From Candidatus Bathyarchaeota archaeon (GTDB lineage Archaea; Thermoproteota; Bathyarchaeia; Bathyarchaeales; Bathycorpusculaceae), in assembly GCA_963828195.1 (NCBI GenBank), contig CAWHDT010000004.1:32001-96000 (forward strand): a stretch of 64,000 bases of DNA, in the 5' to 3' direction. Both the position numbers and the translations under genes were made by a program. This document shows, piece after piece, positions 28,662 to 44,771 of the stretch (within the stretch, counting starts at the first letter, position 1; the number at the start of each line of letters is the position of its first letter). The notes below the pieces were generated by a model. That model was given only the letters and a program-made list of their open reading frames with translations, made no database searches and had not been told where the DNA came from.

Positions 28662-29429
28662 TCAAAATTTTACGCTTTCGACGAGAATTCTCTTCATTAT
28701 TCCTAAGCCATGTCGAAGCTTGAGCTTTTTTTCACCCAATCTACTCCTGTAGTTAATTGGGATTTCAACAATTCTGTAACCACTTCGCCCAACTACAGCG
28801 TTCATTTCAGCCTCTACGTCGAAGCCTTTGCTCTTGGGTTTCCAAGCGTCAAGTAGCTCACTTCGTACAACACGCAGGCCAGACAGGGGGTCACCGAGGT
28901 TAACACCGTTCATTATCAACTGGGCAAATGCAAACATCTTGTTGCCTAAGTAAAAAGGGTTTGCCACTGATTTGCTATCGTTGAGTTCGCCCTTGAACCT
29001 GTTCCCAATGACCATTCCTACGTCAGGATTTTTCTCTAAAATCTCAACCATTTCAGGGATGTATTCAGCTGGATAAGTATAATCAGCATCGGTAAAAACC
29101 ACATAGGGAACTTTTGAGCCAATGTTGTGGAACCCCTGAAACATAGCGTCGCCCTTGCCAATACCCTCTTGAAGCAGGACATCTGCGCCCATATTTTTGG
29201 CTATTTCAATGGTTCTGTCAACGCTATTGCCGTCTACAACAACCAAGTAGGGCTTATCCAGAACGTCTTGCAATTCACTAATCGTGGGTCCCACTCCATC
29301 TTCTTCATTAAGCGTTGCTATAACCACTGATACTTTTGATCGATGTTCTTCAGCAAAAGTTAAACCTGATCTTTCTCCTTCACTAAATGTTCCTATAATC
29401 ACTGGGGTACTTGAACGAATTTCAGTCAC
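28662..29429 (-). CDS. GT2, dolichol-phosphate sugar synthase-like
   Basis: TLNEE, VDGNSVDRT, GKG, TDADYTYP and Y..RLGEKKL. Confidence 0.9.
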   Translation of the reverse strand: MTEIRSSTPVIIGTFSEGERSGLTFAEEHRSKVSVVIATLNEEDGVGPTISELQDVLDKPYLVVVDGNSVDRTIEIAKNMGADVLLQEGIGKGDAMFQGFHNIGSKVPYVVFTDADYTYPAEYIPEMVEILEKNPDVGMVIGNRFKGELNDSKSVANPFYLGNKMFAFAQLIMNGVNLGDPLSGLRVVRSELLDAWKPKSKGFDVEAEMNAVVGRSGYRIVEIPINYRSRLGEKKLKLRHGLGIMKRILVESVKF

Positions 29430-29571: not shown

Positions 29572-30246
29572 TTACTTGTAAAACACTTCTTTATTTCCAA
29601 GGTGACCCTTAGTTTCTACAATGGGTTTCGTTTGATTGCTTAACCATATCTGAGTTTCGCTTCTGAACTCTTCCACTGCCCGTTTCTTAATGTCCAAGTA
29701 ATCTGAAATGTTGACAACTCTCGTTCGGTTACTTAAGAAACCAATCATTTTTTCGAATTTTGGTCCAATGCGCGAAAATTTGTGAGTGATAGAATACTGA
29801 AACACACTATTTTCCAAGTTACGTTTTTGAAGGCAACGTCTAATCACTCTGCTTGCAGATTGATGATCAGGATGCCAGTCTCGCTTTAGTGGGAAATATA
29901 CTTCATCGGGAAAATGCCCTTCTAAGAAAGCAGTTACTGCTTGCTCGACTTCAGGCTCATGTTGTGAAAGAGTATAATCTTCGAAATCAAAGAAAAACAA
30001 GTTGCTCTTCAGCACACCTAAAATGGAAACGGCGTCAGTAACCTCTTTTTTTCGAATTTGCTTTATTTCTTCTGGAGTTGGGTTTGACGTTATGCTTAAA
30101 ACTTTTGAGAATGCATGCCTGCCATCAGTCATGATTACGACAAATACTTTGTAGCCTTCATTGATTCTTTTAGCTATTGTTCCTCCACAACCCAGCGTTT
30201 CATCATCGGGATGGGGAGCAAAAAATATGGCCGTTTTCTCGCTCAT
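29572..30246 (-). CDS. PIG-L/LmbE family N-deacetylase
   Basis: APHPDDETLGCGG and HPDH zinc motifs. Confidence 0.95.
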   Translation of the reverse strand: MSEKTAIFFAPHPDDETLGCGGTIAKRINEGYKVFVVIMTDGRHAFSKVLSITSNPTPEEIKQIRKKEVTDAVSILGVLKSNLFFFDFEDYTLSQHEPEVEQAVTAFLEGHFPDEVYFPLKRDWHPDHQSASRVIRRCLQKRNLENSVFQYSITHKFSRIGPKFEKMIGFLSNRTRVVNISDYLDIKKRAVEEFRSETQIWLSNQTKPIVETKGHLGNKEVFYK

Positions 30247-30291
30247 AATACACGCCTTATTCCAAAAAGTGTAGAGTTAGCGTCTTATTTT

Positions 30292-31410
30292 TTAACTGCT
30301 TTTTTTAAGAGAGATTTTTAGTTTTGTGGCGATGTTCTCAACGGTGTTTCCCCAAGTAACACGATCGTATAGCTCGCTGATTATTTTTTTGTGAACAAGC
30401 CGCACTTCAAAGTTTCTTCTGTAATTGTTGGTCCATTGTTTCTTGTAGGGTTCATCTCCTCTGGTCATATCGTATTCTGTGAAACCCTTTGCTATGCATT
30501 CTCTTAAAAGAAACATAATTATTAAATTTCCAACAGAGAACTCGGAGTACTTTGGAAGAAAACCCGCGAGGTAATAATACATTTTTTTATCATACTCAAA
30601 CGTGTATTGGGCAGCCACGGGTTCTCCGTCTATCCTGAGAAAATAGATGCCCAACCAATTATTCCCCGCAAAAACTTCGGCTACATCCTTGTGAAAATTC
30701 CTAAAGGTTTCCTCAGCGAAGGCTCCAGGCTGACCTTCTGATTTCCACTTCAGCTCATGCAACCCGATGAAAATATTCATCGCTTCTTTAACTGAGAAAC
30801 CGGCTTCATCAAATCTCTTTAGGTCTACAGTATGATTTTCCTGAATTTTTCTAACGTATCGATTTAGGTTTTGCCTCAAATTTCGGCCAAAACTCTTTCT
30901 TAGGCTGTCGAATGTATTTGGCAGCGCAACATACGGACATAGGTTACAGACTCTTTCCTTCGTTTCAAGGTTTAAAGAGGGAGCCATAAACAGTTGTTTT
31001 GAATAATTAATGTTTTCAGGAATCTCTTTTAGTTCAATCCAATCCCAATCTTCTTCTTCAGTAAGATAGTCTAGTATGTACCTCATGAACTCATTTTCTT
31101 TTTTTGAAACGATAAAATTGTTATAATCTGAATGGCGAGCCCCCAGAAATTCGATTTTCTTAATTGAGCCAAAACTTGCCAGTTTGTATTTAGATAACAT
31201 CAGTGGAGCTATTCCCAAAATTTTGTTGTCTTCTTCGACTTTTAAGAGCAAAAGTTTTCTTTGTGCTCCGAAATGCTTCCACCATGTGGATAACCAATCT
31301 ACTGTTAAGAAAACGTTGTTGCCAAACCGGTTTTCTTTAAGGATTTGATCCCACACGTTTCGAATACTTTCAAAATCGTCAACTTCGGTTACTTTCAATG
31401 TATCCTTCAA
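30292..31410 (-). CDS. GNAT, CelD/BcsL (Acetyltransf_6) Fem-fold transferase
   Basis: FLT.DWLSTWWKHFG, SDY, YYYLAGF, SVG and DMTRGDEPYK. Confidence 0.88.
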   Translation of the reverse strand: MKDTLKVTEVDDFESIRNVWDQILKENRFGNNVFLTVDWLSTWWKHFGAQRKLLLLKVEEDNKILGIAPLMLSKYKLASFGSIKKIEFLGARHSDYNNFIVSKKENEFMRYILDYLTEEEDWDWIELKEIPENINYSKQLFMAPSLNLETKERVCNLCPYVALPNTFDSLRKSFGRNLRQNLNRYVRKIQENHTVDLKRFDEAGFSVKEAMNIFIGLHELKWKSEGQPGAFAEETFRNFHKDVAEVFAGNNWLGIYFLRIDGEPVAAQYTFEYDKKMYYYLAGFLPKYSEFSVGNLIIMFLLRECIAKGFTEYDMTRGDEPYKKQWTNNYRRNFEVRLVHKKIISELYDRVTWGNTVENIATKLKISLKKSS

Positions 31411-31434
31411 CTCTTCGGAGTTAAAACTGAAGAT

Positions 31435-32334
31435 TTAATGTTCACTGAATAAATGTAAATAGACATTAGCAGCTGTTGTTCTTAAATTATCTTTAAGGGT
31501 TTTACTTGGAAATTGCTTCATGAAATAATCAAATTCCCCAATCGGAGAAAAATGAAAAGTGCCAATTCCTTTTTTATCTGCCAAAGCAACTGCGCCAACT
31601 GATTTCGGAGATAAACCCACCAGTTCTGAAACTGCACTATCTGCCGCCACCACGTCTTCACTGGACATGACCATGTTCAACCGTTTGGTATGCGTCCCAA
31701 TTACAGCCAAACCATCAAGAACCACCAAATGCGTCTTTATCTCTTCATTTATTGCAACGATAGCCTCATCTAGCACCTTGTGGTAGATGAACTTATTTGG
31801 ATAAGCGTTGCATCCAAAGAAGTTTTTTAGCGCACAAGAAATCTTAACCCTTTGCATATATTTCGGCTTAGGAACATTTACCACCAGATCAGCCTCGGAA
31901 AACAATTCAGGTATATGAAACTTGAAGTCTTTACCGTCAAATGTTCTGTTAACGATTTTGTATTTCTCTTCAGTCAAGTTAACCATGTTTACCTTTTTTT
32001 CCGTTGCCATCTTATTGTACCCAAGCATACTAAACGCGTTTTTGCATTTCATGGCTGAAGCATCCGATTCAACAACAAAAAATTCTGAAGCATCCGTGTT
32101 TTCCCTGAAAACATCAATCAGGGCTCCTACAAACCGGGGGTCAGTCACTTCCCCCGTTGACGGATGATAATAATAGCACATATTTGGCTTGATTACGATT
32201 TTTTTAGACTTTCTGCCAAAATCAAATTTAATTAAATCAAGCGATTCCTTAATGGCTTGTTTTACTGCTTCAGGTTCACAGTTTTTAGTACGCACAAAAC
32301 TAACAAGGCTCAAAGTGTATTTCCTCCAGAACAT
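31435..32334 (-). CDS. DUF362 family protein
   Basis: VIKPNMC, VNVPKPK and SCALKNFFG; start probably TTG about 32313. Confidence 0.88.
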   Translation of the reverse strand: MFWRKYTLSLVSFVRTKNCEPEAVKQAIKESLDLIKFDFGRKSKKIVIKPNMCYYYHPSTGEVTDPRFVGALIDVFRENTDASEFFVVESDASAMKCKNAFSMLGYNKMATEKKVNMVNLTEEKYKIVNRTFDGKDFKFHIPELFSEADLVVNVPKPKYMQRVKISCALKNFFGCNAYPNKFIYHKVLDEAIVAINEEIKTHLVVLDGLAVIGTHTKRLNMVMSSEDVVAADSAVSELVGLSPKSVGAVALADKKGIGTFHFSPIGEFDYFMKQFPSKTLKDNLRTTAANVYLHLFSEH

Positions 32335-33324
32335 TTACGCCATTACTTGAGCGTTCCTATATGCTAACGAAATTGCTTGCAAACCGAGAAGTCCTTCTTC
32401 GCCGGACGGTTGCGGTTGCTCATCCTTTTGTATGCAATTAACAAAATGTTGCAGTTCCAAATAACGTGAAGTTTCTTTAGCCAATCCAAATTTTCTTGCA
32501 ATTCCTGCCCGTATTATGCTTGAAGTGCTGACTGGAGCCAATTGAACTGATGTGTTTTTGGCTGTACCGCAAACTTGAAGTGACGAGATGAAGCTTTTTG
32601 AAAACCAACCAGCCTTAACAGTTCCAATAGCGCCATTCTTAAATTTTAATGTGCAAGTCGCTACGTCCTCCAAATCCGTTCTGAACAGGTATTTGAGGAC
32701 GCTACTTGCAGATTCAACTTCACCGAAAAACCATATTAGTATGTCAACGAGGTGCGAGCCTAAATCTAGCAAGGCGCCTCCTCCCGTTAGCTCTTTGTCA
32801 AGCCACCACGAAGGCACTTTGACAGGTCCTATGCTGTCACTCCTGGGAGAGAACGGTCCACCGCTTATGTTCGTAGCTTCCGCAATTTGCACTTCACCGA
32901 AATAACCATTGACTATTTGATCATGAAGCCTGATAACAAGAGGATCAAACCGCATGTTAAAGCCAACCATTAACTTTACGGAGTTTTTCTGGACTGCAGA
33001 CAGAATTTTCTCGCCCTCCTCGACATTTCTTGCAAGGGGTTTTTCCAAAAGGATATGTTTTCCTGCTTCCGCCGACTTCACCGCAGCTTCTTGATGAAGA
33101 AAATTCGGCAAACTGATGATGACCCCGTCAATATTCGCATCTTTGAGGAGATCTTCATATTTTTCATAGACGTCTTTGACTCCATATTTTTTTGCGGTAT
33201 TTCTGGCCTTCGGAGATAAGTCTGCTACAGCTTCAATCTTGAATTCTTTTAACTTTAAAGAACTGCTAAGTAGGGATTTGCCTTCAACGCCAAGACCGAT
33301 AAGTCCCAAATTAATCGTTTTCAA
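32335..33324 (-). CDS. Gfo/Idh/MocA family oxidoreductase
   Basis: GLIGLG, EKPLA and GGGALLDLGSH. Confidence 0.93.
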   Translation of the reverse strand: MKTINLGLIGLGVEGKSLLSSSLKLKEFKIEAVADLSPKARNTAKKYGVKDVYEKYEDLLKDANIDGVIISLPNFLHQEAAVKSAEAGKHILLEKPLARNVEEGEKILSAVQKNSVKLMVGFNMRFDPLVIRLHDQIVNGYFGEVQIAEATNISGGPFSPRSDSIGPVKVPSWWLDKELTGGGALLDLGSHLVDILIWFFGEVESASSVLKYLFRTDLEDVATCTLKFKNGAIGTVKAGWFSKSFISSLQVCGTAKNTSVQLAPVSTSSIIRAGIARKFGLAKETSRYLELQHFVNCIQKDEQPQPSGEEGLLGLQAISLAYRNAQVMA

Positions 33325-33462
33325 AAAATAACCTCTTTTTTTTACAAATAATAAAGTTTCAAAGATAACGCAGCAAATGTTATAGTGATTTTTATTTCTT
33401 TTCCAATATTTTGCACAAATTATCGAGTAATGCTTTGAATTGCCTGATGAATCGTGAGCAGG

Positions 33463-34206
33463 TCATGCCTGACTTTTTTGAGTTTCTTTCAGTTGAAGAA
33501 GTGCGTATATTCTTATTGCCGCCCACTCTTCTTTAAAGTGAGCATCATACTGGCCTATATCTATTATCTCATAGTTGTGATCAAACAACAACTTTAGCAT
33601 GGCATTGTAGCCTTTATAGTGTGGTGAACTGATTGTAGCAAGCTCATCTACGAATGGGCATGTTAGAGTAGGCACGTCAATGTTTTTTCTGTTTGTCTCA
33701 AGGAAAAATAAGCGGGGTTTGTTAACATTCAGTAATTTATCCATTAAAGATACAAAAGATGTTTGACTGCATATATCAAATGCTCCGAGAAGAAGAATTG
33801 CGGAGAACAGACGATCTGACCCTGATTGCAGATTTAACTTTTCAAAAGAAGACGAATGTACCCAGGTACCTTTTGGATAAATTTGTTTAAGGTCTTTAAT
33901 TGCTTTGGCGCTGTTGTCAAAACCTGTTATATTGTATCCCGATTCTAAAAGTGGACCTGCCAACGGAGAATACCCACACATGACATCCAAAAAATTGTCG
34001 CCCGGGTTAAGATAGGGCTTTATTATGTTAAGAAGAGTTTCTCCGCGGTTGTTGACGTTTTTTAAATATGGATATTCATATCGAGAAGTGATTTTGCGCA
34101 AAACAGTTATCGCTGGCTTTTCTAAATGTAGAAAACGCAATGTCTTTTGCGCTGAATGTTTAACGCTCTGCTTGTTCATTGTTTTCCTTTCCGATGCCCT
34201 ATTCAT
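33463..34206 (-). CDS. Class I SAM-dependent methyltransferase-like protein
   Basis: FLDVMCGYSP motif I and ITGFD motif II; close paralog of 41153-41860. Confidence 0.75.
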   Translation of the reverse strand: MNRASERKTMNKQSVKHSAQKTLRFLHLEKPAITVLRKITSRYEYPYLKNVNNRGETLLNIIKPYLNPGDNFLDVMCGYSPLAGPLLESGYNITGFDNSAKAIKDLKQIYPKGTWVHSSSFEKLNLQSGSDRLFSAILLLGAFDICSQTSFVSLMDKLLNVNKPRLFFLETNRKNIDVPTLTCPFVDELATISSPHYKGYNAMLKLLFDHNYEIIDIGQYDAHFKEEWAAIRIYALLQLKETQKSQA

Positions 34207-34266
34207 TGTTAATTTTGTAAGAATTTGGATGTTAATCGCTGAGTTTTACAAGGGATCGTTGCGGAT

Positions 34267-37200
34267 CTAATTGGAAAAGGGGGAGGTTACGTCATTTTTC
34301 CGTTTTTTTAATGACAGTGCAACCGCGCCAAAGGTCACAAGCACAATTGCTAACAAGACTAAAATGAATGCTACAGTGCTGAACTCTGGTACTGTTGGGG
34401 TTGGAGAGGGAGATGCAGTTACAATCGGAGTAGGAGACGGAGACGCAGTTGGAACTGGAGTTGGTTTTGGAGTTGAGACTGGAGTAGGTGAAGGGGTCGA
34501 AGTAGGTGAAGGAGTTGGAGTAGGTGCGACAGATACAGTAATGGTAGATGCAGTAGAGTTCACCGCGATACCCGTATTGTCAGTTACTTGGAGGATAAAG
34601 TTCCAGTCGCCAACAGCAGTAGAAGATGAAATTGAAAAGTTGTAGAAAGACGAAGTTGCACCGCTAATAGAAGAGTATGAGAGTGCACCAGGAGCCTTGC
34701 TAAACCATTGATAGGTGTAGGGCGAAGTGCCAGTTGCCAAAGCAGATGAAGTTACATTGACTGTTTGCAGTGTCTGGCTTTGAACGATTGTGCTAGGAGT
34801 AGGCGTCAACGAAGGAGCAGCCAAAACAGAATTTACCGTAACAGAAGGCGAAGCGGATTGAGGCGAAGTTATACCTAAGCTGTCAGTAACAGTTGCCGTA
34901 ATTAATGGGGAACCAGAAGCACTAGCAGAATAAGTATAGGTTGAAGCCGTTTTGCCGCTTTGAGCTACGCCGCCAACATACCATTGGTATGATGAATAAC
35001 TACCTGAACCTCCAGTGGGATTAGCAGTAAATACATTGGACTGACCAACGTCCAAAGTCAATGAAGTAGGCGTTATAGAAACAGTTGGAGAACTCACCAT
35101 AACAGTGGCTGCAGTAGAGTTCACCGCGGCACCCGTATTATCCGTCACTTGAAGGATGAAACTCCAACTACCGGTAGCCGTTGAAGCCGAAGTGACAAAA
35201 CTGAAACTTCCTAAGTTTGGACCCTCCTTAACGTAACTTCCGCCTGGAGCCTTCTCAAACCATTGATACGTATATGGCGAAGTGCCAGTTGTAACAGCAG
35301 TAGAAGTCAAACTTGAAGTCTGGCTCTGATCAACAGCGACAGGTGAAGGAGAAACTGTGGGAGCAGCCAAAACAGAATTTACCGTAACAGCAGGAGCAGA
35401 AGACTGAGGCGAAGTTACACCCAATAAACTGTCAGTAACAGTTACCGTAATTAATGGGGAACCAGAAGCACTAGCAGAATAAGTATAGGTTGAAGCCGTT
35501 TTGCCGCTTTGAGCTACGCCGCCAACATACCATTGGTATGATGAATAACTACCTGAACCTCCATAAGCAATAGCAGTGAACATCTCAGATTGGCCAGCAT
35601 CCATTGTCCAAGAAGTAGGCGATACAGTAACAGTTGGAGTGACGGTCACCATAACAGTGGCTGCAGTAGAGTTCACCGCGGCACCTGTGTTGTCAGTCAC
35701 TTGGAGAATAAATTTCCAGTTGCCAGCAGTCGTAGACGAAGAAGTCACAAAGTTGTTGTTGGACGAAGTTGCGCCACTTATAGATGTGTAAGATAATGCA
35801 CCGGGGGCTTCACTGAACCACTGGTACGTGTAAGGAGTAGTACCTGTTGTAACCGCGGTAGAAGTTAAACTACAAGGCTGACCCCGACCGATGATACTTG
35901 GATTAGGCGATACAGTCGGAGCAACCAAGGCAGAGTCAACAGTTACAGTTGCAGAAGCAGAATTCAGCGTTGATCCGCCTCCAGTGGGGGTCAATTGAAG
36001 CTGGAAGCTCCAGCTGCCCACAGCTGTAGAAGCGGAAGTCACAAAGTTATAGCTAGACGATGTTGCGCCGCCTATAGGTGTGTAAGAAGATGCGCTTGGA
36101 GCCTTACTAAACCATTGATATGTGTAAGGCGAAGAACCCGTCACGGCAGGAAAAGTCAAACTTGAAGTTTGACCCTGATTCACTGAGCCAGGCGAAACGG
36201 ATACGGTGCGACCAGCTAAAGTTGAGCCATCTGGTATTACTGAGGCTATTTGGGACAGGGCATTGCCTATAAATATCTCTCCCAAGCCAGAATCATACGC
36301 AGCGCCATAAGGAACCATTCCCACTCCGATATTTTCAATTACGGAGTTACCGCTGTCTGATATCACCGAAACAGAGCTAGAAAACTCGTTGGCAACGAAT
36401 ATTTCGCCCAAGGCAGGATCATAAGCCATGCATTCAGGTTGGGTTCCGACGTCTATGGGCGTACCAACCACGGTGTTAGTACTGTCAGATATCACCGAAA
36501 CCGTGCCGGCCCAATAATTGGTTACGAATATCTCGCCCGTGCCAGAATCATAAACTACACCATCCACGCCAGACCCCGGACTTCCCACAGTTATGGTTGT
36601 GATAACAGTATTAGTGCTATCCGATATTACAGAGACCGTGCCGGAATTATAGTTGGCGACAAATATTTCACCTTTGCCAGAATCATAAGCTAAACCATAT
36701 GGGTAGGTTTGCACGGGTATGGTTGCCACCACGGTATTGGTAGCATCATTAATCACAGAGACAGAGTTGCCGCCTGGTTGCGTAGATGAAGACTCATTTC
36801 CATAATTGGTAACGAATATTTCGCCTTTTCCGGAATCATAAGCTACACATGAGGGACCGAGACCAGTGGTTATGTTTGCTACCACTGCATTGTTGCTGTC
36901 TGATATCACAGAAATCGAGTTGGTTGTATAGCTGCTTACGAATATTTCGCCCTTAGCAGAATCATAAGCTACGCCATAAGCCCAGTTTCCTACAGGCAAA
37001 GTCGCAACCACCTCATCATTACTATCAGATATAACCGAGACAGTGCCGGCTCCAGCATCAGCCACGAATATTTCGCCCTTACCAGAGTCATAAGCAACAT
37101 CTTGGGGCCAGCTTCCCACGGGCACCGATGCAACCACAGTATCCGATATGATTGAGACAGAGGTAGACCCAGAGTTGGCAACGAATATCTCACCCAGATA

Positions 37201-38127
37201 AGAATCGTAAGCTTCGCCAGAAGGATCAGAACCCACAGAAATAGTTCCGCCGGTTGTAAGCACTGCATTTGTGCTGTCAGAAATTATCGAAACAGTTCCA
37301 GAGCCACTGTTCGCCACGAAGATCTCACCCGCGCCAGAATCATAAGCCACACCAGAAGGACCGCTTCCAACGGATGGAGAAGCAATCACGGTATTAGTGA
37401 CGTCAGATATCACTGAGACAGAGCCAGACCCTTGATTAGCAACGAATATTTCGCCCTTAGCAGAATCATAAGCTAGACTTTCAGGATCAGATCCCACAGA
37501 GATAGGTGTACCAACTACGGCATTAGTGCTATCCGATATCACCGAAACACTCCCAGAGCCACCGTTGGCGACAAATATTTCGCCCTTAGCAGAATCATAA
37601 GCTACAGCAGTAGGATCAGTTCCCACAGTAACGTTTGCCACAACCGTATAAGTGCTAAGCGAAATCACCGAGACATTGCCTATTCCGGAATCAGCCACGA
37701 ATATTTCGTTTTTGCCAGAATCGTAAGCCAAGCCTGAAGGACCGGCGCCGGCACCCAAAGACACATTTGCCACAACTGCATAAGAGTAATCATCTAGCGC
37801 GTAAACCGTGTTGGACCCAGAGTTTGAAACGAATACCTGATTTCCAGAATCCCAAACTGCACCAATGGGATCTGATCCCACTGACACGTTCGCAATCACC
37901 GCCTCAGTGCTGTCCGATATTACAGAGACGTTGTCGGAGCCGCTATTGACAACGAATATAGTCCCCTTGTTAGAATCGTAAGCTACGCCCGCAGGATTGG
38001 TTCCTACTGTTATGGTTGCGTTTATTGCGGTGCCGGAGGCTATATCCACATGGGTTATTAAAGTGGCAAAAATCATAATGAAAATAATGAAAACGAATCC
38101 TAAAAGTTTAGAAAACTTTACTTTCAT
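34267..38127 (-). CDS. Surface protein with 14 YVTN/YncE repeats (two 7-bladed propellers), Ig-like repeats and a PEF-CTERM-like sorting signal
   Basis: 14 copies of P..VAYDS..GEIFV.N..VSVI; C-terminus PTPTVPEF-TM-KKRK. Confidence 0.9.
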   Translation of the reverse strand: MKVKFSKLLGFVFIIFIMIFATLITHVDIASGTAINATITVGTNPAGVAYDSNKGTIFVVNSGSDNVSVISDSTEAVIANVSVGSDPIGAVWDSGNQVFVSNSGSNTVYALDDYSYAVVANVSLGAGAGPSGLAYDSGKNEIFVADSGIGNVSVISLSTYTVVANVTVGTDPTAVAYDSAKGEIFVANGGSGSVSVISDSTNAVVGTPISVGSDPESLAYDSAKGEIFVANQGSGSVSVISDVTNTVIASPSVGSGPSGVAYDSGAGEIFVANSGSGTVSIISDSTNAVLTTGGTISVGSDPSGEAYDSYLGEIFVANSGSTSVSIISDTVVASVPVGSWPQDVAYDSGKGEIFVADAGAGTVSVISDSNDEVVATLPVGNWAYGVAYDSAKGEIFVSSYTTNSISVISDSNNAVVANITTGLGPSCVAYDSGKGEIFVTNYGNESSSTQPGGNSVSVINDATNTVVATIPVQTYPYGLAYDSGKGEIFVANYNSGTVSVISDSTNTVITTITVGSPGSGVDGVVYDSGTGEIFVTNYWAGTVSVISDSTNTVVGTPIDVGTQPECMAYDPALGEIFVANEFSSSVSVISDSGNSVIENIGVGMVPYGAAYDSGLGEIFIGNALSQIASVIPDGSTLAGRTVSVSPGSVNQGQTSSLTFPAVTGSSPYTYQWFSKAPSASSYTPIGGATSSSYNFVTSASTAVGSWSFQLQLTPTGGGSTLNSASATVTVDSALVAPTVSPNPSIIGRGQPCSLTSTAVTTGTTPYTYQWFSEAPGALSYTSISGATSSNNNFVTSSSTTAGNWKFILQVTDNTGAAVNSTAATVMVTVTPTVTVSPTSWTMDAGQSEMFTAIAYGGSGSYSSYQWYVGGVAQSGKTASTYTYSASASGSPLITVTVTDSLLGVTSPQSSAPAVTVNSVLAAPTVSPSPVAVDQSQTSSLTSTAVTTGTSPYTYQWFEKAPGGSYVKEGPNLGSFSFVTSASTATGSWSFILQVTDNTGAAVNSTAATVMVSSPTVSITPTSLTLDVGQSNVFTANPTGGSGSYSSYQWYVGGVAQSGKTASTYTYSASASGSPLITATVTDSLGITSPQSASPSVTVNSVLAAPSLTPTPSTIVQSQTLQTVNVTSSALATGTSPYTYQWFSKAPGALSYSSISGATSSFYNFSISSSTAVGDWNFILQVTDNTGIAVNSTASTITVSVAPTPTPSPTSTPSPTPVSTPKPTPVPTASPSPTPIVTASPSPTPTVPEFSTVAFILVLLAIVLVTFGAVALSLKKRKNDVTSPFSN
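34896..35563. repeat. Identical 119-bp intragenic direct repeat (34896-35014 and 35445-35563)
   Basis: Base-by-base identity of the segments encoding GGSGSYSSYQWYVGGVAQSGKTASTYTYSASASGSPLIT. Confidence 0.9.
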
Positions 38128-38507
38128 AAAAAATCCCTCTTAAAATTTCATTTAATAAAGCTACTTAGCTCTGCCTTTTATGGCAAGCGCTCTTCTATTT
38201 TTATTAGAATAACTTAACTTATAAGCATTTTGCAAAAAACTTTTGAAATTAATTTTTTTAATGGGGTGTTTATGTTTTTCCATATTTTGAAAACCTCTTA
38301 ACATATTTTATGTTGTGGGGCAATAAGCTCGTTCACTATCATTGATGATCTACAAGAGGGTTGGGTGCTTAACGTGGACAGAATTGAACCTGCGCCAAGT
38401 CAACGGCGGCTTCATTGAATGACAAATCTAGAAAAGCTGACTGCAAACCTTTACTTTTAAAAATAATGTAAAGAATGGGAATAACTGGTAAAACAACGTT
38501 CGAAACC

Positions 38508-39668
38508 CTAAATATCCTCTATTTCATACGAGTCAGAAAACAATTTCTTCTTCAGAGATGATGGCACTACATCGTAGAAACGTGCAAGAGAGTCAAGAAT
38601 CCCGTCATAGCACTTTACAAAATAAAAAGATTCATCAGATTCGCAGCCCCTCTTCAGCTTAATTTCCGCCATGCCTGTACCATAATAGATTTCTTTGATG
38701 CCGTTTTCAATTGCCCATTTTATTGGAGCGTAATAAACCAAATTAAGATAAACATAATCATTGTTTGAGCAGGCTGAATAATCGAAGCCACATTTAAAAC
38801 CTTCTAAAGTTTCTTTATGCTGCATGCATAAGGTAAAGCCAACAATTTTTTCGTTCTTTTTGGCCAGAAATAACAACGTTTTATCTCCAGCGTGCCTACT
38901 TAAACTTTTAAAGAAAGAAGCATCGTAGTAAGGTGATTGCCTTCTGTTATATTTGAAGTAAAGATTTGAGTAGAGATTTGACAATACCAAAGACAGCTGC
39001 TCGAATTCAGATATGGCTTCAATTTTAACACTGTTTTCGCCCGATTTTTTCAACTCACGTCTAACATTTTTACGAACTTTATAATTTAGGCTCATTAAAT
39101 ATTCGTCGAAAGTAGTCCACCGGATTTTGATGGTATAAGTTTTTCTCCAAGGTAATTTGCGGTATCCGAAATCATTTAAACTATTCATGAGATTTGCTTC
39201 TGAAGCCGAAACACAGATAAAACAACTAATTGAGATTCGTCCCGTTTTGCATAAGCAATCGATTCCTTCAGATATCTTACCTATAATTAGGCTTTTATCA
39301 TAGTTTTCATCGCAAAGAATTCCGCTACGCCAACAGCCAGCTGGAGAATGGCAAAGTAATGCATGGCGATTGTATAAATTGAGAAAGTCCGCAAAGGTCA
39401 ATATTTTTGTTAAGAATGGGATTAATTTTGGTGTGTTAGCGAAATAGGTATCTTTTTGGTCAATGAAACATGGAGTAAAAGCTACCGGATTTGCGCCACA
39501 AAAAACAGCTACGTAGTATACATCTTGTTTCATGATGTTTTCCATTGTTTTAAACCATTCATAAGTGCAATGAGGGTCAGTTGAAAGGGAATTAACGAAA
39601 CTTTTGCCCAAGATATCCACGGATTTTAAGATTTTGAAATTCAATTGTTCAGTCAACTTGACTACCAT
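38508..39668 (-). CDS. FemAB-like GNAT (DUF482-type)
   Basis: W.TFDEYL.SL..K.RKNVRRE, Y..L.YY.PI.WAIENG and K.KRG pattern of FemAB_like proteins. Confidence 0.8.
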   Translation of the reverse strand: MVVKLTEQLNFKILKSVDILGKSFVNSLSTDPHCTYEWFKTMENIMKQDVYYVAVFCGANPVAFTPCFIDQKDTYFANTPKLIPFLTKILTFADFLNLYNRHALLCHSPAGCWRSGILCDENYDKSLIIGKISEGIDCLCKTGRISISCFICVSASEANLMNSLNDFGYRKLPWRKTYTIKIRWTTFDEYLMSLNYKVRKNVRRELKKSGENSVKIEAISEFEQLSLVLSNLYSNLYFKYNRRQSPYYDASFFKSLSRHAGDKTLLFLAKKNEKIVGFTLCMQHKETLEGFKCGFDYSACSNNDYVYLNLVYYAPIKWAIENGIKEIYYGTGMAEIKLKRGCESDESFYFVKCYDGILDSLARFYDVVPSSLKKKLFSDSYEIEDI

Positions 39669-39708
39669 CGTGAAAGATATTTTCGGTAAGAAAGTTTGCC
39701 TCTTGATT

Positions 39709-40968
39709 TCAAAAACTGACCCGTGGAGGACTCCACGCGCGGCTTTTGTCTTTTAACATGTTAATTAAGCCCAAAGGAGAAAAAGCAAGTCTAAATAGAA
39801 AAGGCGCAGGATCGTTTACTTCAAATAAATCGTAAAACAAACCAGGTTCATAAAACTTAAGCCAACTGGCAAGCAACTTCAAATCGCCTTTCTGCAAATT
39901 TGAGTTTGCTGAGGAATCCTTGATTAGCTTTACAATGTACAGGAGGTCTTGCTCGAGATATCTGCCTTTAACACCCTCTTTATAGTTGAATGTCCCCTTG
40001 ACGTCTCCATCCATTGCTATTTTGTACAATAAATAAGGAAAGTCCACCCCAGCTTTGACTGCAACACAAAGTGATCCCCAGAACCGCGGATTTATCTCCA
40101 GCAGTTTGGGAGTATTGTCGCGAGGGTCAAGTCTGAACTCGACTTCAGCTATTCCGTGCCAATTCAGTGATTCAAGAAGCTTTTCAGTATACATCTTCAT
40201 GCGAGGGTTCAGCGGAGCACTTTCGCGGTAACAACTGTTGCCTCCACTAGGAGGCCAAGCTCGGTTAACTTTTATGCAGCAGAAGGCTCTAGGTTTTCCA
40301 TTGTTGTATACTGCAGCGACTGAATAGTTGATTCCTGGAACATATTCTTGAATTAACGGATATGGAAAATACTGGTTTATGCTGTTGTAAGTTGCAATAA
40401 GTTCCGAAGCAGAGTTGACGAATCCGCCCCGCCTATCAAAAGCGCGATCTTTCTGCCACACCACTGACCAACGTGGTTTAACAACGCAGGGGTAGCTCAT
40501 TTCCTGAGCAGCAAGTTTTAGTTCCGCTGAATTTTGAACAAAACGAGTTTGTGGAATAGGCACGCCATTTTCCATCGCCAACTTAAGCGTCGAGCTTTTA
40601 TCAAAACATGACAGAATTGAATCGTGACTGGCGATGGGCAGTTTAACGTAAGGAGTTAATCTGTCTCTGTTTTTGGAAATCGGCACCAGAGATGCTTCAG
40701 AAAGCGGAAAATACATATCAAACTTTGAGTTTTTAACTATTTTTTCAACCGCTTGAGCATATTCTTTTTCAAGGCTAGTTGATGGGACTAAAAATTGTTT
40801 TCGACAAAATTTGGAAAAACGGGAAGTATACACGGGAAAGTTTGTCAGGACAGCTGTGTTTATGTTCCTTTTTCCTAGAGACCGTATGATTGGAAGGCTG
40901 ATGGGACAATATCCTTCAGCCACTAAGACGCCGTCGCTTTCCATGTTAATCAACCAATAAGGATTCAA
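39709..40968 (-). CDS. ATP-grasp ligase (polysaccharide-associated amide ligase type)
   Basis: DK, YPCVVKPR, LIQEYVPG and EVEF...LLEINPRFWGS; start may be ATG 40944. Confidence 0.9.
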   Translation of the reverse strand: MNPYWLINMESDGVLVAEGYCPISLPIIRSLGKRNINTAVLTNFPVYTSRFSKFCRKQFLVPSTSLEKEYAQAVEKIVKNSKFDMYFPLSEASLVPISKNRDRLTPYVKLPIASHDSILSCFDKSSTLKLAMENGVPIPQTRFVQNSAELKLAAQEMSYPCVVKPRWSVVWQKDRAFDRRGGFVNSASELIATYNSINQYFPYPLIQEYVPGINYSVAAVYNNGKPRAFCCIKVNRAWPPSGGNSCYRESAPLNPRMKMYTEKLLESLNWHGIAEVEFRLDPRDNTPKLLEINPRFWGSLCVAVKAGVDFPYLLYKIAMDGDVKGTFNYKEGVKGRYLEQDLLYIVKLIKDSSANSNLQKGDLKLLASWLKFYEPGLFYDLFEVNDPAPFLFRLAFSPLGLINMLKDKSRAWSPPRVSF

Positions 40969-40976
40969 TTGTTAAT

Positions 40977-41050
40977 TGGAGCCAGGGGTTGGATTTGCAC
41001 CAACATAAACGGCTCTGCAGGCCGTCGCTTTCGTACTCAGCCACCCCGGC
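40977..41050 (-). tRNA. tRNA-Cys(GCA), non-canonical (no D-loop GG, T-loop UGCAAAU), copy 1, CCA encoded
   Basis: GCCGGGG TG GCTG AGTACGA AAGC G ACGGC CTGCAGA GCCGT TTAT GTTGG TGCAAAT CCAAC CCCTGGC T CCA folds into a full cloverleaf. Confidence 0.92.
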
Positions 41051-41082
41051 GACATCATTTTTTAATCCGCGGAAGATCCAAC

Positions 41083-41096
41083 ATTATAATTTTCTG
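41083..41096 (-). promoter_or_regulatory. Putative BRE-TATA upstream of tRNA copy 1
   Basis: CAGAAAATTATAAT on the minus strand, about 35-45 nt before the mature 5' end. Confidence 0.45.
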
Positions 41097-41152
41097 GGCT
41101 TAAAGCCGTTAAAGCCACGTCGGGAAACAATATTTTCTAAATAATAAGCAAG

Positions 41153-41860
41153 CTAAATAGCTATTGATTTGGGTTTCTCAGCTAGAATTGCGTATATCCT
41201 CATTGTTGCCCACTTTTCTTTAAACTGAGCATCATATTGGCCGACGTCTATTACTTCGTAATTATGATCAATTAGTAACTTTAGCATCGCGTTGTACCCT
41301 TTAAGGTGTACAGAGCGAATTGTCCCAGATTCCTCTATGAATGGACTGTCAATTGTGGGTGCCTTTTCGATGCTTCTATTTGTTTCCAGAAAGAACATGC
41401 GGGGTTTGCTAACACTCAAGAGTTTGTCGATTGAAGATACGAAAGCTTGTTGACAACATAGCTCGAATGCTCCGAGAAGAAGAAAGATTGAAAATTGTCG
41501 TTCTTCGTCAGGTTCGGTTTTAAAGCTTCCATAAGAAGAAAGTACCCACTTTCCTTCTGGATAAATTTTTCTCAAATCTTTTATCGCCGTGCGATTATCG
41601 TCAAATCCGGTTATATTGAATCCTGACTTTAGCAATGGCTTCGCCAACGGAGAATAGCCACACATTATATCCAAAAAATTGTCTCCGGAATTAAGATACG
41701 GCTTTATTATGTTAAAAAGAGTTTCGCCCCTTAAACTAACGCCTTTCAGATAAGGATATTCGTATCGGGAGGTAACTTTGTTTAAAATCACTAAGGCAGG
41801 TTTTTCTAATCTCAAAGTTTGTAAAGCCTTATGGCCAAAATTTTTTATTCCTGAGCCCAA
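41153..41860 (-). CDS. Class I SAM-dependent methyltransferase-like protein
   Basis: FLDIMCGYSP and ITGFDD; close paralog of 33463-34206. Confidence 0.75.
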   Translation of the reverse strand: MGSGIKNFGHKALQTLRLEKPALVILNKVTSRYEYPYLKGVSLRGETLFNIIKPYLNSGDNFLDIMCGYSPLAKPLLKSGFNITGFDDNRTAIKDLRKIYPEGKWVLSSYGSFKTEPDEERQFSIFLLLGAFELCCQQAFVSSIDKLLSVSKPRMFFLETNRSIEKAPTIDSPFIEESGTIRSVHLKGYNAMLKLLIDHNYEVIDVGQYDAQFKEKWATMRIYAILAEKPKSIAI

Positions 41861-41927
41861 ATTTTATTTACCCCCTATAATGCCTCGGTTACATTAAAAG
41901 TTTGGTTATAAACGATTTTTAAATTAA

Positions 41928-43040
41928 TTATGAAGATTTTGCTACGGAAAGACGCTTTCCAAGAGTGTTAGTCAGTGGAGAAAATACATCCTTTTTAGTT
42001 ATAAAATTGTAAACGAGTGGAACAATTCTTTTTTTGATAGCTCTAATCTCAAGGTTATGCCTTATCAAAGTATTCCAATTTTGCTTGTAGGATTCATCGC
42101 CTCTCATGAAATCGAATTCATTTAAGCCATTATCGATAGAATTTTTTATCGAGTATAAGAAGAGAAGATGCCCTAAATGGTAATCAAAGTATTTCGGGTC
42201 AAATCCTGTAAGATAGTTAAACATTTTATTTCTGTATTTGAATGCATAAATTGCTGAAACAGGTTGATTGTTTAGTGTAAGAAAACAAAGATTCAACCAT
42301 CCCCTTTCGGCGAAAGACCTGGCAACGCTTAAGTGAAAATCACGGAATTTTGGGTCTGCAAAAGCTCCAGCGCTGTTTTCCGACTGCCACTTCATTTGGT
42401 GTAGATTAAAAAATGTCTTCATGGCCGTATCAAGGGTATCCAAATCGTTATGAATATAGAAATTAACTTTGAAATCATTTTGTAGCCTTTTGTCCCATCG
42501 CCGCATATTTCTCCGCCAATTAGAACCTAAGCCTTGAAAGTAAGCTTCAAACTTATTTGGCAAGATGATATATGGACAAATGTTGAGATTTCTTTCCGCC
42601 AATTCTAGTTTTTTCCCTGAACAAGTCTTCAGAGCCTTTATCGTGTCGGAGTCTTCTGGAACATCTTCAAATTCGATGCAGTCCCACTTTGAGCTTGCAT
42701 GATTTGCGTAATCCATCATTAGCTTAGCGCACTCTGCCTTTTTGTCCGCCAAAAGAAAAGTTTGATAGTCGGCTGCTGGAGTTCCTATGAACTCCATTTT
42801 TGTTAGTTTGAGTCCAGCTAATTTATATTTAGAACGCATCAACGGAGCCGCTGCAACTAGTTTTTCGTCGTCGCTAACTGTTATTAGACTGAATATCCTT
42901 TCGTCGCCGAAGTGCTTCCACCATGTTGACAGCCACTCCCACGTGAGAAATATGTGGTTATCACCGCTTCTTTGAAGAGCGTCGGCCCATTCAGTTTTAT
43001 AATTCAAAAACTGCTCAAAAGATAACTCGGCTACTTTCAT
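41928..43040 (-). CDS. GNAT, CelD/BcsL (Acetyltransf_6) Fem-fold transferase
   Basis: FLTWEWLSTWWKHFG, ADY, YLTGFDP and FDFMRGDESYK; paralog of 30292-31410. Confidence 0.88.
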   Translation of the reverse strand: MKVAELSFEQFLNYKTEWADALQRSGDNHIFLTWEWLSTWWKHFGDERIFSLITVSDDEKLVAAAPLMRSKYKLAGLKLTKMEFIGTPAADYQTFLLADKKAECAKLMMDYANHASSKWDCIEFEDVPEDSDTIKALKTCSGKKLELAERNLNICPYIILPNKFEAYFQGLGSNWRRNMRRWDKRLQNDFKVNFYIHNDLDTLDTAMKTFFNLHQMKWQSENSAGAFADPKFRDFHLSVARSFAERGWLNLCFLTLNNQPVSAIYAFKYRNKMFNYLTGFDPKYFDYHLGHLLFLYSIKNSIDNGLNEFDFMRGDESYKQNWNTLIRHNLEIRAIKKRIVPLVYNFITKKDVFSPLTNTLGKRLSVAKSS

Positions 43041-43139
43041 TTAAAATTCAAATCCTTTTTTTGAGTGAAGATCAGATTTTTCGACTTGGATGCACATCTT
43101 GAAACTCCAACACCCGAAACATGAAGCAATAATTGCTGT

Positions 43140-43213
43140 TGGAGCCAGGGGTTGGATTTGCACCAACATAAACGGCTCTGCAGGCCGTCGCTTTCGTACT
43201 CAGCCACCCCGGC
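43140..43213 (-). tRNA. tRNA-Cys(GCA), non-canonical, copy 2, identical to copy 1
   Basis: 74/74 identical to 40977-41050; flanks diverge within 1 nt. Confidence 0.92.
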
Positions 43214-43306: not shown

Positions 43307-43906
43307 TTATGCAGTCATGTTTAGCCATAAGCTGACAAATCTTTGATTATACTGGAAAGCGTTAGCTGTATCATTAAAAATCCAAAGTTCAAAGAAGACG
43401 TTTCCGAAAAAGCCGTTATTTTGGGGATCAAATGCAACGGTTGTTTGGCTTAGACTTAATGGGAAACCGTTAACGATGATGTTTTGCATGTCTACTTGAT
43501 TAGGGTTATTTTGATCAAGTTGGTACTGTAAAGAAAAGCTGATGGGGAGTTGCAGTGACTGATTATTAGCAACGCAAAATGGGATATCAACTAAAGACGG
43601 CAGATTGCTGCTTGTACCATTGAAACTGTCCGGAGCCGATTGCGTTTCGTTTCGGAATTTTACTTCGATCTGATAATAAGCAACGGACCCTATATGATTG
43701 TTAACATTAAGATATAATGAGTAATTTTGAGCTGCTTCAACGTTGTAAGGATATGTGGCATTGTGGTAAGCCCCAAAGATCGATAATTCCGTTAAGGGCG
43801 TTGGCGCTGGGGCTGCGGCAAGTTGCTGAATTGCAGGTGAGGCAACAAACAACGCTAAAACGACAGTTGCGACAAGTAAGAGTGTTCTGTATTGTCTGAT
43901 AGCCAT
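43307..43906 (-). CDS. DUF1616 family protein
   Basis: N-terminal TM, TELSI.G....YP, N..G..YY and FELW...LWLN. Confidence 0.8.
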   Translation of the reverse strand: MAIRQYRTLLLVATVVLALFVASPAIQQLAAAPAPTPLTELSIFGAYHNATYPYNVEAAQNYSLYLNVNNHIGSVAYYQIEVKFRNETQSAPDSFNGTSSNLPSLVDIPFCVANNQSLQLPISFSLQYQLDQNNPNQVDMQNIIVNGFPLSLSQTTVAFDPQNNGFFGNVFFELWIFNDTANAFQYNQRFVSLWLNMTA

Positions 43907-44380
43907 TCAAGTCTTCCTCGGTTTTCGATTCAATTTAATCCAAACAGCTGTGCCTGCACCTAAGATAGCCACAGAGCCAATTATGGAGAAAATAGTAACC
44001 ATGAATTTTTGATTGTCATTGTTATTGGCGTTTTGCTGCAGGGCTGTAGCTTGGGAGCTAAAGCTGTTTAACACGTTTTGGCTTTGAGTCGCATAATTAT
44101 AAGCTGCATTGTAGTCATTGCTTGCGTAAGCTAATTGAGCCTCAGACATTAAACCAGCAGCGTCGTTAAGAGTAACCATTAAAGAGGTTACGTTTGCTCC
44201 TGCCGATTGCGCTTGTTTAGCTGCATCATAGCAGCTTTTGAAGTTGTTTTGTGCTGAAGCAATGGCTGTTTGGGCGCTATTTTGTTGAGCGAAAACAGGA
44301 GAAACAAACAAAGCAACAGCTATAAAAAAGATTACAAAAGCTATAGCGCAAGTCTTTAAGCCTTTAATCAAGTTGAGCAC
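43907..44380 (-). CDS. Helical secreted/membrane-anchored hypothetical protein
   Basis: Signal peptide, Ala/Gln-rich helices (AGANVT.L...LN.A) and C-terminal TM. Confidence 0.75.
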   Translation of the reverse strand: MLNLIKGLKTCAIAFVIFFIAVALFVSPVFAQQNSAQTAIASAQNNFKSCYDAAKQAQSAGANVTSLMVTLNDAAGLMSEAQLAYASNDYNAAYNYATQSQNVLNSFSSQATALQQNANNNDNQKFMVTIFSIIGSVAILGAGTAVWIKLNRKPRKT

Positions 44381-44405
44381 CGTTAAAAATCAGGTCACAG
44401 AAAAA

Positions 44406-44771
44406 TTAGGTTGATTGTGAGTCTGATAGGAATTGTTTAATTGGGCACAATTCTTCTAAAGCTTTCTTTTTGGTGGAAAAATCGTAAAGGTGCTTTTCCA
44501 TGGTTTTGCTGCATCGAGCGTATTCTTTGTAAGCATCTAAATATTCATGTCCTTTGAAGGTTAATTTGTAGCGTTGATTATTATCTTCGAATGTTATAAG
44601 CGAAGCATCTATTATTTCGGTTAGATAACGTTGCAAAACCTTGTAGCTTAAGTTAGCTTGATACATTATCTGGGTTTTTTTAGGGTCCTGACTCGCAACG
44701 TTTAGAATGTCAGCTATTATGTCTAACCTATCTCGATAATTACCCACGGTTTGCGTTCTCCTAAAAATCAA
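44406..44771 (-). CDS. Winged-helix transcriptional regulator (HTH_45 type)
   Basis: YRDRLDIIADIL...KTQIMYQANLS...Y.LT.KG. Confidence 0.9.
   Translation of the reverse strand: MIFRRTQTVGNYRDRLDIIADILNVASQDPKKTQIMYQANLSYKVLQRYLTEIIDASLITFEDNNQRYKLTFKGHEYLDAYKEYARCSKTMEKHLYDFSTKKKALEELCPIKQFLSDSQST

Follow-up and report, generated by a model that had tools for sequence, protein, structure and literature searches.

A variant tRNA-Cys lineage associated with a glycan gene cassette in one order of Bathyarchaeia, and its candidate role as an aminoacyl donor

Introduction

We analyzed a stretch of 64,000 nucleotides from Candidatus Bathyarchaeota archaeon (GenBank assembly GCA_963828195.1, contig CAWHDT010000004.1, positions 32,001 to 96,000 of the forward strand), here called the window, in which two identical variant tRNA-Cys(GCA) genes lie within an island of glycan genes, near genes for Fem-fold tandem acetyltransferases (GNATs). 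A first-pass annotation of the window had proposed that these tRNAs deliver cysteine to the transferases for the modification of a surface glycan. The variant is an ancient monophyletic tRNA-Cys paralogue within one order of Bathyarchaeia, and its genomic setting suggests that it belongs to a glycan-modification cassette and not to the translation set.

The closest described counterparts are the non-proteogenic tRNA-Gly (NP1-3) of Staphylococcus aureus and S. epidermidis. According to PMC7826273, the T loop of these tRNAs has TGC or TGT where TTC is usual, and position 19 is U. They are poor ligands of EF-Tu and the ribosome, and determinants in their D and T arms make them the preferred substrates of FmhB, FemA, and FemB. 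Such tRNAs, the same source notes, have been detected so far only in S. aureus and S. epidermidis. The archaeal variant resembles them in being encoded by extra isoacceptor genes beside a proteogenic one, in having TGC for TTC in the T loop and having lost G19, in forming a distinct phylogenetic cluster, and in occurring with Fem-family transferases. The first-pass annotation had drawn this parallel, and the shared T-loop hallmark bears it out; with TGC in the loop, a pseudouridine at position 55 is not possible. The two systems differ in the host (archaea, not Firmicutes), in the presumed amino acid (cysteine, not glycine), and in the presumed acceptor (a glycan intermediate, not lipid II). 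In addition, the archaeal tRNA gene lies inside a biosynthetic operon.

The FemABX proteins (FemX of Weissella, FmhB; PF02388) provide the enzymatic comparison. Cassette proteins of relatives of the window genome pass the cut-off of this family, match the structures 6snr and 1ne9/4ii9 by sequence, have the length of a tandem GNAT, and carry an aligned invariant lysine in the C-terminal F/W-K motif. In contrast, the three Fem-fold proteins of the window belong to PF13480 or PF04339 and are kin of FemABX at the profile level only, and the presumed acceptor is no peptidoglycan precursor.

Other polysaccharide and thiol pathways resemble the locus in gene content. The PEP-CTERM/exosortase exopolysaccharide loci (TIGR03019, TIGR03099) likewise hold a Fem-family protein and a lysA-like decarboxylase of the pyridoxal phosphate (PLP) type in a polysaccharide locus; however, the scores here fall far under the cut-offs (66 vs. 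260 for TIGR03019 and 142 vs. 478 for TIGR03099), and no exosortase was seen in the cassette. We know of no dedicated tRNA and no established chemistry for the bacterial PEP-CTERM FemAB systems. Bacillithiol and mycothiol synthesis offers a similar sequence of steps, in which a glycosyltransferase acts, a PIG-L enzyme (BshB/MshB) exposes the amine of glucosamine, and cysteine is then added. Here, however, the BshB1 score is under its cut-off (77.5 vs. 182.5), and the context is a large surface-glycan island; the cassette holds no BshC, MshC, or gene resembling cysteinyl-tRNA synthetase (CysRS), and a truncated CysRS paralogue of the genome is not co-distributed with it. In the capsule glucuronamide pathway of Campylobacter, an ATP-grasp amidoligase works with hisC/CobD-like PLP enzymes, with neither Fem-fold enzymes nor a tRNA gene. 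The position of an ATP-grasp gene beside hisC-like PLP enzymes in a glycan locus is alike by description, and this parallel offers a role for the ATP-grasp and PLP genes that is independent of tRNA.

For Bathyarchaeota, a 2017 survey (PMC5424206) reports tRNA-Cys genes in the SepRS/SepCysS operons of some members, a context different from the glycan cassette. By a term search, a 2026 review on aminoacyl-tRNA-dependent enzymes (PMC12945691) makes no mention of 'archaea' or 'dedicated tRNA', and its one Cys-tRNA passage concerns the PEARL enzyme TglB. We also searched the literature on Fem and aminoacyl-tRNA-dependent transferases in polysaccharide or archaeal glycan contexts, on tRNA-Cys of Bathyarchaeia, and on non-proteogenic or dedicated tRNAs since 2018; among the papers listed, judged for the most part by title and abstract, none described an archaeal case or a tRNA gene located within a cluster of glycan genes.

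A structurally distinct tRNA-Cys lineage

In the window, ARAGORN called exactly two tRNAs; each is a minus-strand tRNA-Cys(GCA) gene. The copies are 100% identical over 75 nt, lie 2163 nt apart, and each score 59.2 bits against the Rfam tRNA model (RF00005), whose gathering score is 29 bits. Their D loop has 7 nt and lacks the GG, and position 55 in the T loop, UGCAAAU, is G; the acceptor stem, U73, the encoded CCA, and the GCA anticodon are all intact. The genome that holds the window (G000; other G numbers denote comparison genomes, L numbers loci or contig stretches, and C numbers contigs) is assembled in 9 contigs and 2.83 Mb. Among its 46 tRNA genes, called by ARAGORN in intron mode, the D-loop GG is missing only in the two island copies, which are also the only genes with TG at T-loop positions 54-55. 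The earlier description of these tRNAs as non-canonical is therefore correct. They are not the only tRNA-Cys of the genome, a point that the first-pass annotation had raised: a third, canonical gene at C5:397519-397594 has the D-loop GG and the T loop UUCAAUU. Single-sequence minimum free energy folding gave the cloverleaf for neither the window variant nor the canonical tRNA and was uninformative.

Relatives were searched with two covariance models. The first (R1), a model of tRNA-Cys run on 120 genomes of the genus, returned two variant copies each in G000, G004, and G071 and one each in G099, G088, and G121. The second (R2), a model of the variant itself, was run on 151 genomes of the order, with subsequent inspection of 20 regions, and revealed further variants in five other families, represented by G026, G191, G214, G211, and G141. 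The variant is present in metagenome-assembled genomes of Bathyarchaeia from at least six families, all in one order. It is accompanied by a canonical tRNA-Cys in 13 of these and related genomes (G000, G004, G026, G071, G088, G121, G109, G191, G211, G214, G141, G151, and G215). A T-arm pattern scan of metagenome contigs gave 37 stretches, comprising 26 with a variant tRNA-Cys of at least 71 bits, three with a phage tRNA-Met, and eight without a tRNA by either ARAGORN or R2; the last two groups were left out of the variant counts. A narrow pattern search over 401 genomes of the class matched six genomes, all within the order. Since this pattern misses variants such as those of G211, G214, and G141, the zero matches outside the order are weak evidence.

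The variant shows the marks of a folded and conserved RNA. Across 39 distinct aligned rows, 97.9% of the cells pair and 11 of the 20 pairs have changed on both sides, a compensatory pattern whose pairing level was reached by none of 500 shuffles, in an alignment that had been fitted to the model, which favours structure. Position 55 is G in all 36 distinct variant sequences, whose T loops start with UGC or UGA (C or A at position 56), and U73, CCA, and the GCA anticodon are kept in most of them. In a maximum-likelihood tree of 74 distinct tRNA-Cys sequences, built on about 75 nt and weak in its inner branches, the 34 variant tips formed one clade (ultrafast bootstrap 98), and the 40 canonical tips, from the same genomes and families, fell outside it. 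When two copies with U55, those of G151 and G215, were added, the clade grew to 36 with a support of 76. The D loop of the G215 copy lacks GG, and that of G151 has GG directly after A14, off the 18-19 position. The tRNA elbow is altered, with no G18G19 and with G instead of U at position 55 except in these two cassette-linked sequences. We regard it as very likely that the variant is a specialised tRNA-Cys paralogue.

Two further kinds of unusual tRNA came to light in these searches. A second extra tRNA-Cys type, nearly identical in eight genus genomes (L049:10015-10090, L053:9994-10069, and also in G074, G072, G073, G121, G109, and G123), lacks the D-loop GG and has a weak D stem; its T loop, UUCAAUU, is normal. 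The gene lies between a cysteine-synthase-like PALP gene with a hexapeptide transferase gene and the gene of an 832-aa class-I aminoacyl-tRNA synthetase, 7-20 kb away from the canonical tRNA-Cys and cysS. The tRNA-Met(CAT) genes on the metagenome contigs L123, L144, and L153 have a UGCGAAU T loop and no D-loop GG and are unrelated to the cassette; L144 is a phage contig by its terminase and portal genes.

Linkage of the variant tRNA to the glycan cassette

The variant tRNA heads the cassette and is co-oriented with its genes. Within the genus of the window, the order is a DUF1616 flank, the tRNA, GNAT 41928 (window genes are named by their first coordinate; Table 1), a methyltransferase-like open reading frame (ORF), a second tRNA in some genomes, the ATP-grasp gene, a FemAB_like gene in some genomes, GFO, DUF362, GNAT 30292, PIG-L, and GT2. 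In the other families, the tRNA is followed by a hisC-like aminotransferase gene, methyltransferase genes at some loci, and genes for a lysA-like PLP decarboxylase, the ATP-grasp enzyme, a FemAB-family protein, GFO, DUF362, Acetyltransf_6, PIG-L, and GT2.

Presence of the cassette in the genus was tested through orthologues of GNAT 41928 at 76% identity or more in the 120 genomes. Seven genomes had such an orthologue, and the same seven carried the tRNA or a remnant of it at the same spot, intact in six and decayed in one (G109). Four examined genomes have the same DUF1616 flank (60-75% identity) without the cassette; none of the four has the tRNA, and no ATP-grasp or Fem-fold gene lies downstream of the flank. 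The tRNA therefore tracks the cassette (7/7) and not the flank (0/4).

The linkage is also visible from the other genes. ATP-grasp orthologues with at least 62% identity occur in 4 of the 151 order genomes, each with a variant tRNA upstream. At 64% identity or more, nine genome-contig loci include seven with the tRNA, one with a remnant, and one without, L098, which has only 4.2 kb of upstream sequence. From the side of the tRNA, the sequence reaches 5.8 kb or more downstream at 20 distinct loci; a co-oriented Fem-fold gene was present within 8.6 kb at 18 of these. On nine short contigs, the next gene, 26-95 nt from the tRNA, was a hisC-like aminotransferase gene (eight contigs) or an Acetyltransf_6 gene (one). 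A profile of the cassette FemAB proteins gave six loci above 340 bits in the order sample, four of which (G026, G211, G151, and G215) had a co-oriented extra tRNA-Cys upstream within about 5.6 kb; it was missing at the other two, in G179 and on contig C8 of G000. Co-occurrence of the variant tRNA with Fem-fold genes in other genomes, named as a check in the first-pass annotation, was hence found across many genomes and metagenome contigs. A functional tie between the variant tRNA and the cassette appears probable to us.

In the window, copy 1 ends 99 nt before ORF 41928-43040, and copy 2 is separated by 9 nt from the TTG listed as the start of the ATP-grasp ORF (39709-40968) and by 32 nt from the next ATG. 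The earlier coordinates and descriptions, which placed two co-oriented tRNA-Cys(GCA) genes in a glycosylation island, one about 100 bp before a CelD/BcsL-type GNAT and the other directly before an ATP-grasp gene followed by a FemAB-like GNAT (38508-40968), were correct. No terminator was found between copy 2 and the ATP-grasp gene by a promoter and terminator scan of the bacterial type, which lacks validation for archaea and says little for an archaeon.

Such an arrangement could also be expected of a cis RNA element of the operon, be it a site of processing by RNase P/Z, a module with a promoter, or a device that senses cysteine charging, that is no aminoacyl donor. It would fit that the tRNA heads a run of co-oriented genes or is flanked by them, at distances of 9-150 nt, that no terminator-like site follows it (in a scan not made for archaea), and that it persists with drifting anticodon loops in some genomes. 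However, a processing signal needs neither a conserved U73, CCA, and GCA anticodon nor a specific elbow change, and we know of no archaeal cis-acting tRNA mechanism of such kind. We consider this explanation distinctly unlikely.

The patchiness of the cassette, found in 7 of the 120 genus genomes, would in turn suit an origin of the tRNA genes as attachment or recombination sites, remnants of mobile DNA that had brought in the cassette, with the tRNA duplicated by integration. In the window, two 3' fragments of canonical tRNA-Cys flank an AAA_14 ATPase gene, and there are similar fragments in G099 and G014. The variant copies nevertheless span the full tRNA, keep its structure, and form one clade across families; the fragments nearby belong to the canonical and not the variant type; and no integrase was present in the cassette or in the 10 ORFs that were scanned on the right side of the island. 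An origin of the variant as an integration site is thus very unlikely in our estimate.

As for the fragments themselves, they lie at 47586-47650 and 49042-49075 of the window, both on the minus strand, on either side of the AAA_14/DUF4143 ATPase gene 47726-48982; one is 94% identical to the canonical gene over 54 nt and the other 88% over 34 nt. Their arrangement resembles what a small element inserted into a tRNA-Cys gene would leave behind. Comparable 3' fragments are found at G099:C5:778560 and 779359 and at G014:C1:2670656. Separately, the variant tRNA is directly preceded in G026, G141, G191, L099, and several metagenome contigs by a conserved ORF (about 305 aa; for example, L014:8544-9473 and L099:4175-5083) that matches nothing in Pfam or NCBIfam.

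Fem-fold enzymes of the cassette

The cassette proteins of G211, G026, L098, and L099 (343-356 aa) pass the PF02388 cut-off with E-values from 1e-14 to 2e-22. They also match FmhB (6snr) with an E-value of 1.3e-12 and FemX with about 3e-9, including the C-terminal lysine motif, and the cassette FemAB proteins match the FemX and PEP-CTERM FemAB models of NCBIfam under the cut-offs. The proteins of the window are more distant relatives. When the family of ORF 41928 (64 sequences) was aligned with the cassette FemAB proteins by hhalign, the match had 92.8% probability over 320 columns, and the invariant Y-K-x-x-W of the former stood opposite the W-K-x-x-W of the latter; we infer that the aligned lysine is the counterpart of FemX Lys305. 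ORF 38508, which fills the slot held by the FemAB-family (PF02388) protein in other families of the order, has a distant similarity to the G211 FemAB protein (E 0.004). GNAT 30292 is conserved in the other-family loci wherever the contig reaches that part, at 55-59% identity in G026, G211, and L121. A PDB sequence search that covered ORFs 41928 and 38508 returned nothing meaningful for either.

Source records name the homologues of GNAT 41928 'CelD/BcsL family acetyltransferase', and for the homologue P0005, 81% identical to the window GNAT, MprF-C-terminal and FemAB clusters were returned at 0.85-0.86, under 0.9, and serve as leads only. The first-pass annotation had compared the window GNATs with FemABX/MprF-type enzymes. 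A FemABX assignment stands for the relatives' cassette proteins, which match PF02388, FmhB, and FemX, and not for the window's own three, which are relatives at the profile level. The comparisons support Fem-fold homology of the window's GNATs and do not support their membership in FemABX. The earlier statement that the third Fem-fold GNAT adjoins a PIG-L gene is confirmed by the two ORFs 30292-31410 and 29572-30246.

A bacterial cluster of 199 members has a polysaccharide deacetylase domain (PF01522) fused to Acetyltransf_6. By analogy, such a fusion fits a logic of deacetylation followed by re-acylation, like that of the adjoining PIG-L and Acetyltransf_6 genes here.

Charging of the tRNA

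The genome G000 encodes a full CysRS of 474 aa on contig C5 (503.6 bits to the cysS model), and its best match to the SepRS model TIGR00470 has 47.2 bits against a cut-off of 380.65. As SepRS is absent, phosphoserine, the alternative donor offered in the first-pass annotation, is unlikely. The ordinary CysRS would be expected to charge the variant tRNA, since the identity elements are retained and there is no SepRS.

A CysRS paralogue of 416 aa is encoded at G000:C5:234632-235879 (L110:1459-2709), directly after a PrxQ-type thiol peroxidase gene. It lacks about 60 C-terminal residues of the cysS model and scores 308.6 bits, under the cut-off of 340; orthologues with at least 59% identity occur in about 90 of the 120 genus genomes, some of them partial or with internal stops. 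The paralogue was considered as a dedicated synthetase and rejected, because it is widespread in the genus with or without the cassette; no copy turned up in G071, a genome with two variant tRNAs. It is possible that it acts as a cysteine ligase for something other than tRNA.

A candidate cysteine donor for glycan modification

We give an even chance to the explanation that the variant tRNA is a cysteine donor held apart from translation and serving one or more Fem-fold transferases of the glycan cassette. The tRNA, once cysteinylated, would be kept off the elongation factor and the ribosome by its altered D and T loops, by analogy with the staphylococcal non-proteogenic tRNA-Gly. At least one Fem-fold transferase of the cassette would then acylate a free amine on a sugar intermediate with the cysteinyl group. 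This amine could be exposed by the PIG-L de-N-acetylase or made via the oxidoreductase that resembles a 3-dehydrogenase. The candidate transferases are the FemAB-family proteins in the other families and the Acetyltransf_6 and FemAB_like proteins in the window. The ATP-grasp enzyme, with the hisC-like and lysA-like PLP enzymes of relatives, probably builds a separate amide-linked substituent; it had been counted as part of the tRNA system in the first-pass annotation, and a separate amide-forming step together with the relatives' PLP enzymes seems to us the better explanation.

The PLP genes also invite a different explanation, in which the tRNA is a scaffold. The tRNA would be charged, the bound residue would be remodelled by the hisC-like and lysA-like enzymes of the cassette, and a Fem-fold enzyme would pass the resulting non-protein residue to a surface glycan. 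Outside the genus of the window, a hisC-like PLP gene does lie 20-61 nt downstream of the tRNA in most loci seen, and a lysA-like decarboxylase gene follows in the same cassette. PLP enzymes that depend on tRNA are an established class; SepCysS and SelA act on tRNA-bound residues. On the other hand, G000, G071, G088, G099, and G121 keep the tRNA and the cassette without either PLP gene, the PLP enzymes score as ordinary hisC (298.8 bits, above the cut-off) and near-lysA, and making and ligating a free amine would explain them and the ATP-grasp enzyme equally well. Such a scaffold is quite improbable in our view, and the same low weight goes to its corollary that the altered elbow is an insulation that keeps the product out of the ribosome. 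If true, it would amount to a tRNA-dependent biosynthetic line for glycan decoration that is encoded with its own tRNA.

For the role as cysteine donor, a number of findings weigh on the other side. All the genomes compared are metagenome-assembled, and related loci are not independent samples. At two kinds of locus, there is no Fem-fold gene within about 10 kb of the variant tRNA: the G214-type locus, which contains GT2, UDP-glucose dehydrogenase, nucleotidyltransferase, GFO, and DUF362 genes, and L138, with no glycan genes nearby. Conversely, no tRNA lies within 10 kb of the Fem-type genes in the G179 cassette and in a pair on contig C8 of G000, nor at five of the nine loci that have a more distant ATP-grasp relative paired with a FemAB_like gene. 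The three GNATs of the window match PF13480 or PF04339 only, not PF02388 (FemABX); their weak NCBIfam matches include a crotonyltransferase that uses acyl-CoA, and the donor of the PF13480 and PF04339 families is not established. The tRNA itself varies. The cassette tRNAs of G151 and G215 keep U55/UUC, that of G109 is a remnant of 31-44 bits with a broken acceptor stem and anticodon loop next to intact cassette genes, U37 occurs with an anticodon-stem mismatch in G088, G121, and L135, and the anticodon loops of L131 and L142 have 6 and 8 nt, respectively. In G099, the canonical tRNA-Cys was seen as 3' fragments only, with no intact copy, and the variant of this genome might have to serve translation. 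This kind of miss is not rare, because, judged by the best E-value, an R1 match in the full-length tRNA-Cys range is likewise missing from about 17-19 others among the 120 genus genomes.

Some of these findings agree with an ordinary, redundant isoacceptor of translation that lies beside the island by synteny, with no functional tie to the Fem-fold enzymes. The variant still has its GCA anticodon and U73, encodes CCA, and forms a good cloverleaf. In the order, additional tRNA-Cys genes are frequent: many genomes have 2-3 copies, mostly of the canonical type. The lack of an intact canonical copy in G099, the intact cassette genes of G109 without an intact variant, and the existence of Fem/ATP-grasp pairs without a nearby tRNA point the same way. 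Against this, the loss of G18G19 together with G55 is unique among the 46 tRNAs of G000 and conserved across families, the variants form a clade that excludes the canonical copies of these genomes, their presence follows the cassette and not the flank, and a second GCA tRNA brings no gain in decoding. We therefore rate a purely translational role as unlikely.

Contig C8 of G000 carries, at 39819-42000 (L188:9823-12019), two successive genes: the first encodes a FemAB-family homologue, which scores 428.6 bits against the profile of the cassette FemAB proteins, and the second is a further Acetyltransf_6 gene. No tRNA was present within about 8-10 kb. It is conceivable that the variant tRNA serves this homologue in trans.

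Should the tRNA indeed be a cysteine donor, the same solution (U55 to G and loss of the D-loop GG) would have arisen independently in archaea, with another amino acid and for another polymer. The idea that archaeal surface glycans are decorated by aminoacyl-tRNA-dependent enzymes would become open to test, and the large uncharacterised families Acetyltransf_6 and FemAB_like would gain a candidate donor. A surface thiol could serve disulfide cross-linking or the binding of metals in archaea that are abundant in soil and sediment.

Gene content of the window

From about 13.6 kb to 43 kb, the window consists of minus-strand glycan genes. The island encodes GT2 and GT4 transferases, a UDP-GlcNAc 2-epimerase, GFO/IDH/MocA oxidoreductases, a GH5 protein, a DUF2206 membrane protein, and hexapeptide and GDSL enzymes. 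Table 1 lists the cassette in its minus-strand order, from the flank and tRNA copy 1 to the GT2 gene. The NHL/PKD protein of the cassette may be a surface protein.

Table 1. Coordinates of the variant tRNA genes and of the cassette and flanking genes in the window, in minus-strand order
Feature	Position	Strand	Remarks
Flank: DUF1616 membrane protein, 157-aa ORF, HTH_45 protein, 127-aa ORF	43307-45178	-	Adjoins the tRNA syntenically across families
Variant tRNA-Cys(GCA), copy 1	43140-43213	-	ARAGORN and Rfam; no G18G19, T loop UGCAAAU, U73, encoded CCA
Acetyltransf_6 (Fem-fold tandem GNAT), 370 aa	41928-43040	-	PF13480, E 1.8e-32, 112.9 bits vs. cut-off 22
235-aa ORF, weak methyltransferase match	41153-41860	-	Syntenic within the genus cassette
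Variant tRNA-Cys(GCA), copy 2	40977-41050	-	ARAGORN and Rfam; identical to copy 1
ATP-grasp ligase, 419 aa	39709-40968	-	Precedes the FemAB_like gene
FemAB_like (PF04339)/Acetyltransf_6 protein, 386 aa	38508-39668	-	PF04339, E 1.5e-24
NHL-repeat/PKD-like protein, 1286 aa	34267-38127	-	Inserted in the cassette of G000 and G004; outside the conserved cassette elsewhere
Methyltransferase-like ORF	33463-34206	-	
GFO/IDH/MocA oxidoreductase	32335-33324	-	Nearest NCBIfam model archaeal UDP-GlcNAc 3-dehydrogenase, 144 bits, under cut-off 450
DUF362 protein	31435-32334	-	Paired with the oxidoreductase in cassettes where the contig covers that part
Acetyltransf_6 (Fem-fold GNAT), 372 aa	30292-31410	-	E 1.5e-30, 106.6 bits vs. 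cut-off 22
PIG-L family de-N-acetylase	29572-30246	-	Nearest model BshB1, 77.5 bits, under cut-off 182.5
GT2 glycosyltransferase	28662-29429	-	Nearest model AglJ, 137 bits, under cut-off 325

The island contains two paralogous pairs of GFO/IDH/MocA and DUF362 genes, at 26534-28596 and 31435-33324, which are about 38-42% identical in comparisons among relatives, and this pairing recurs in the cassettes seen. Elsewhere in G000, ARAGORN called a tRNA-Sec(TCA) at C3:100933-101016.

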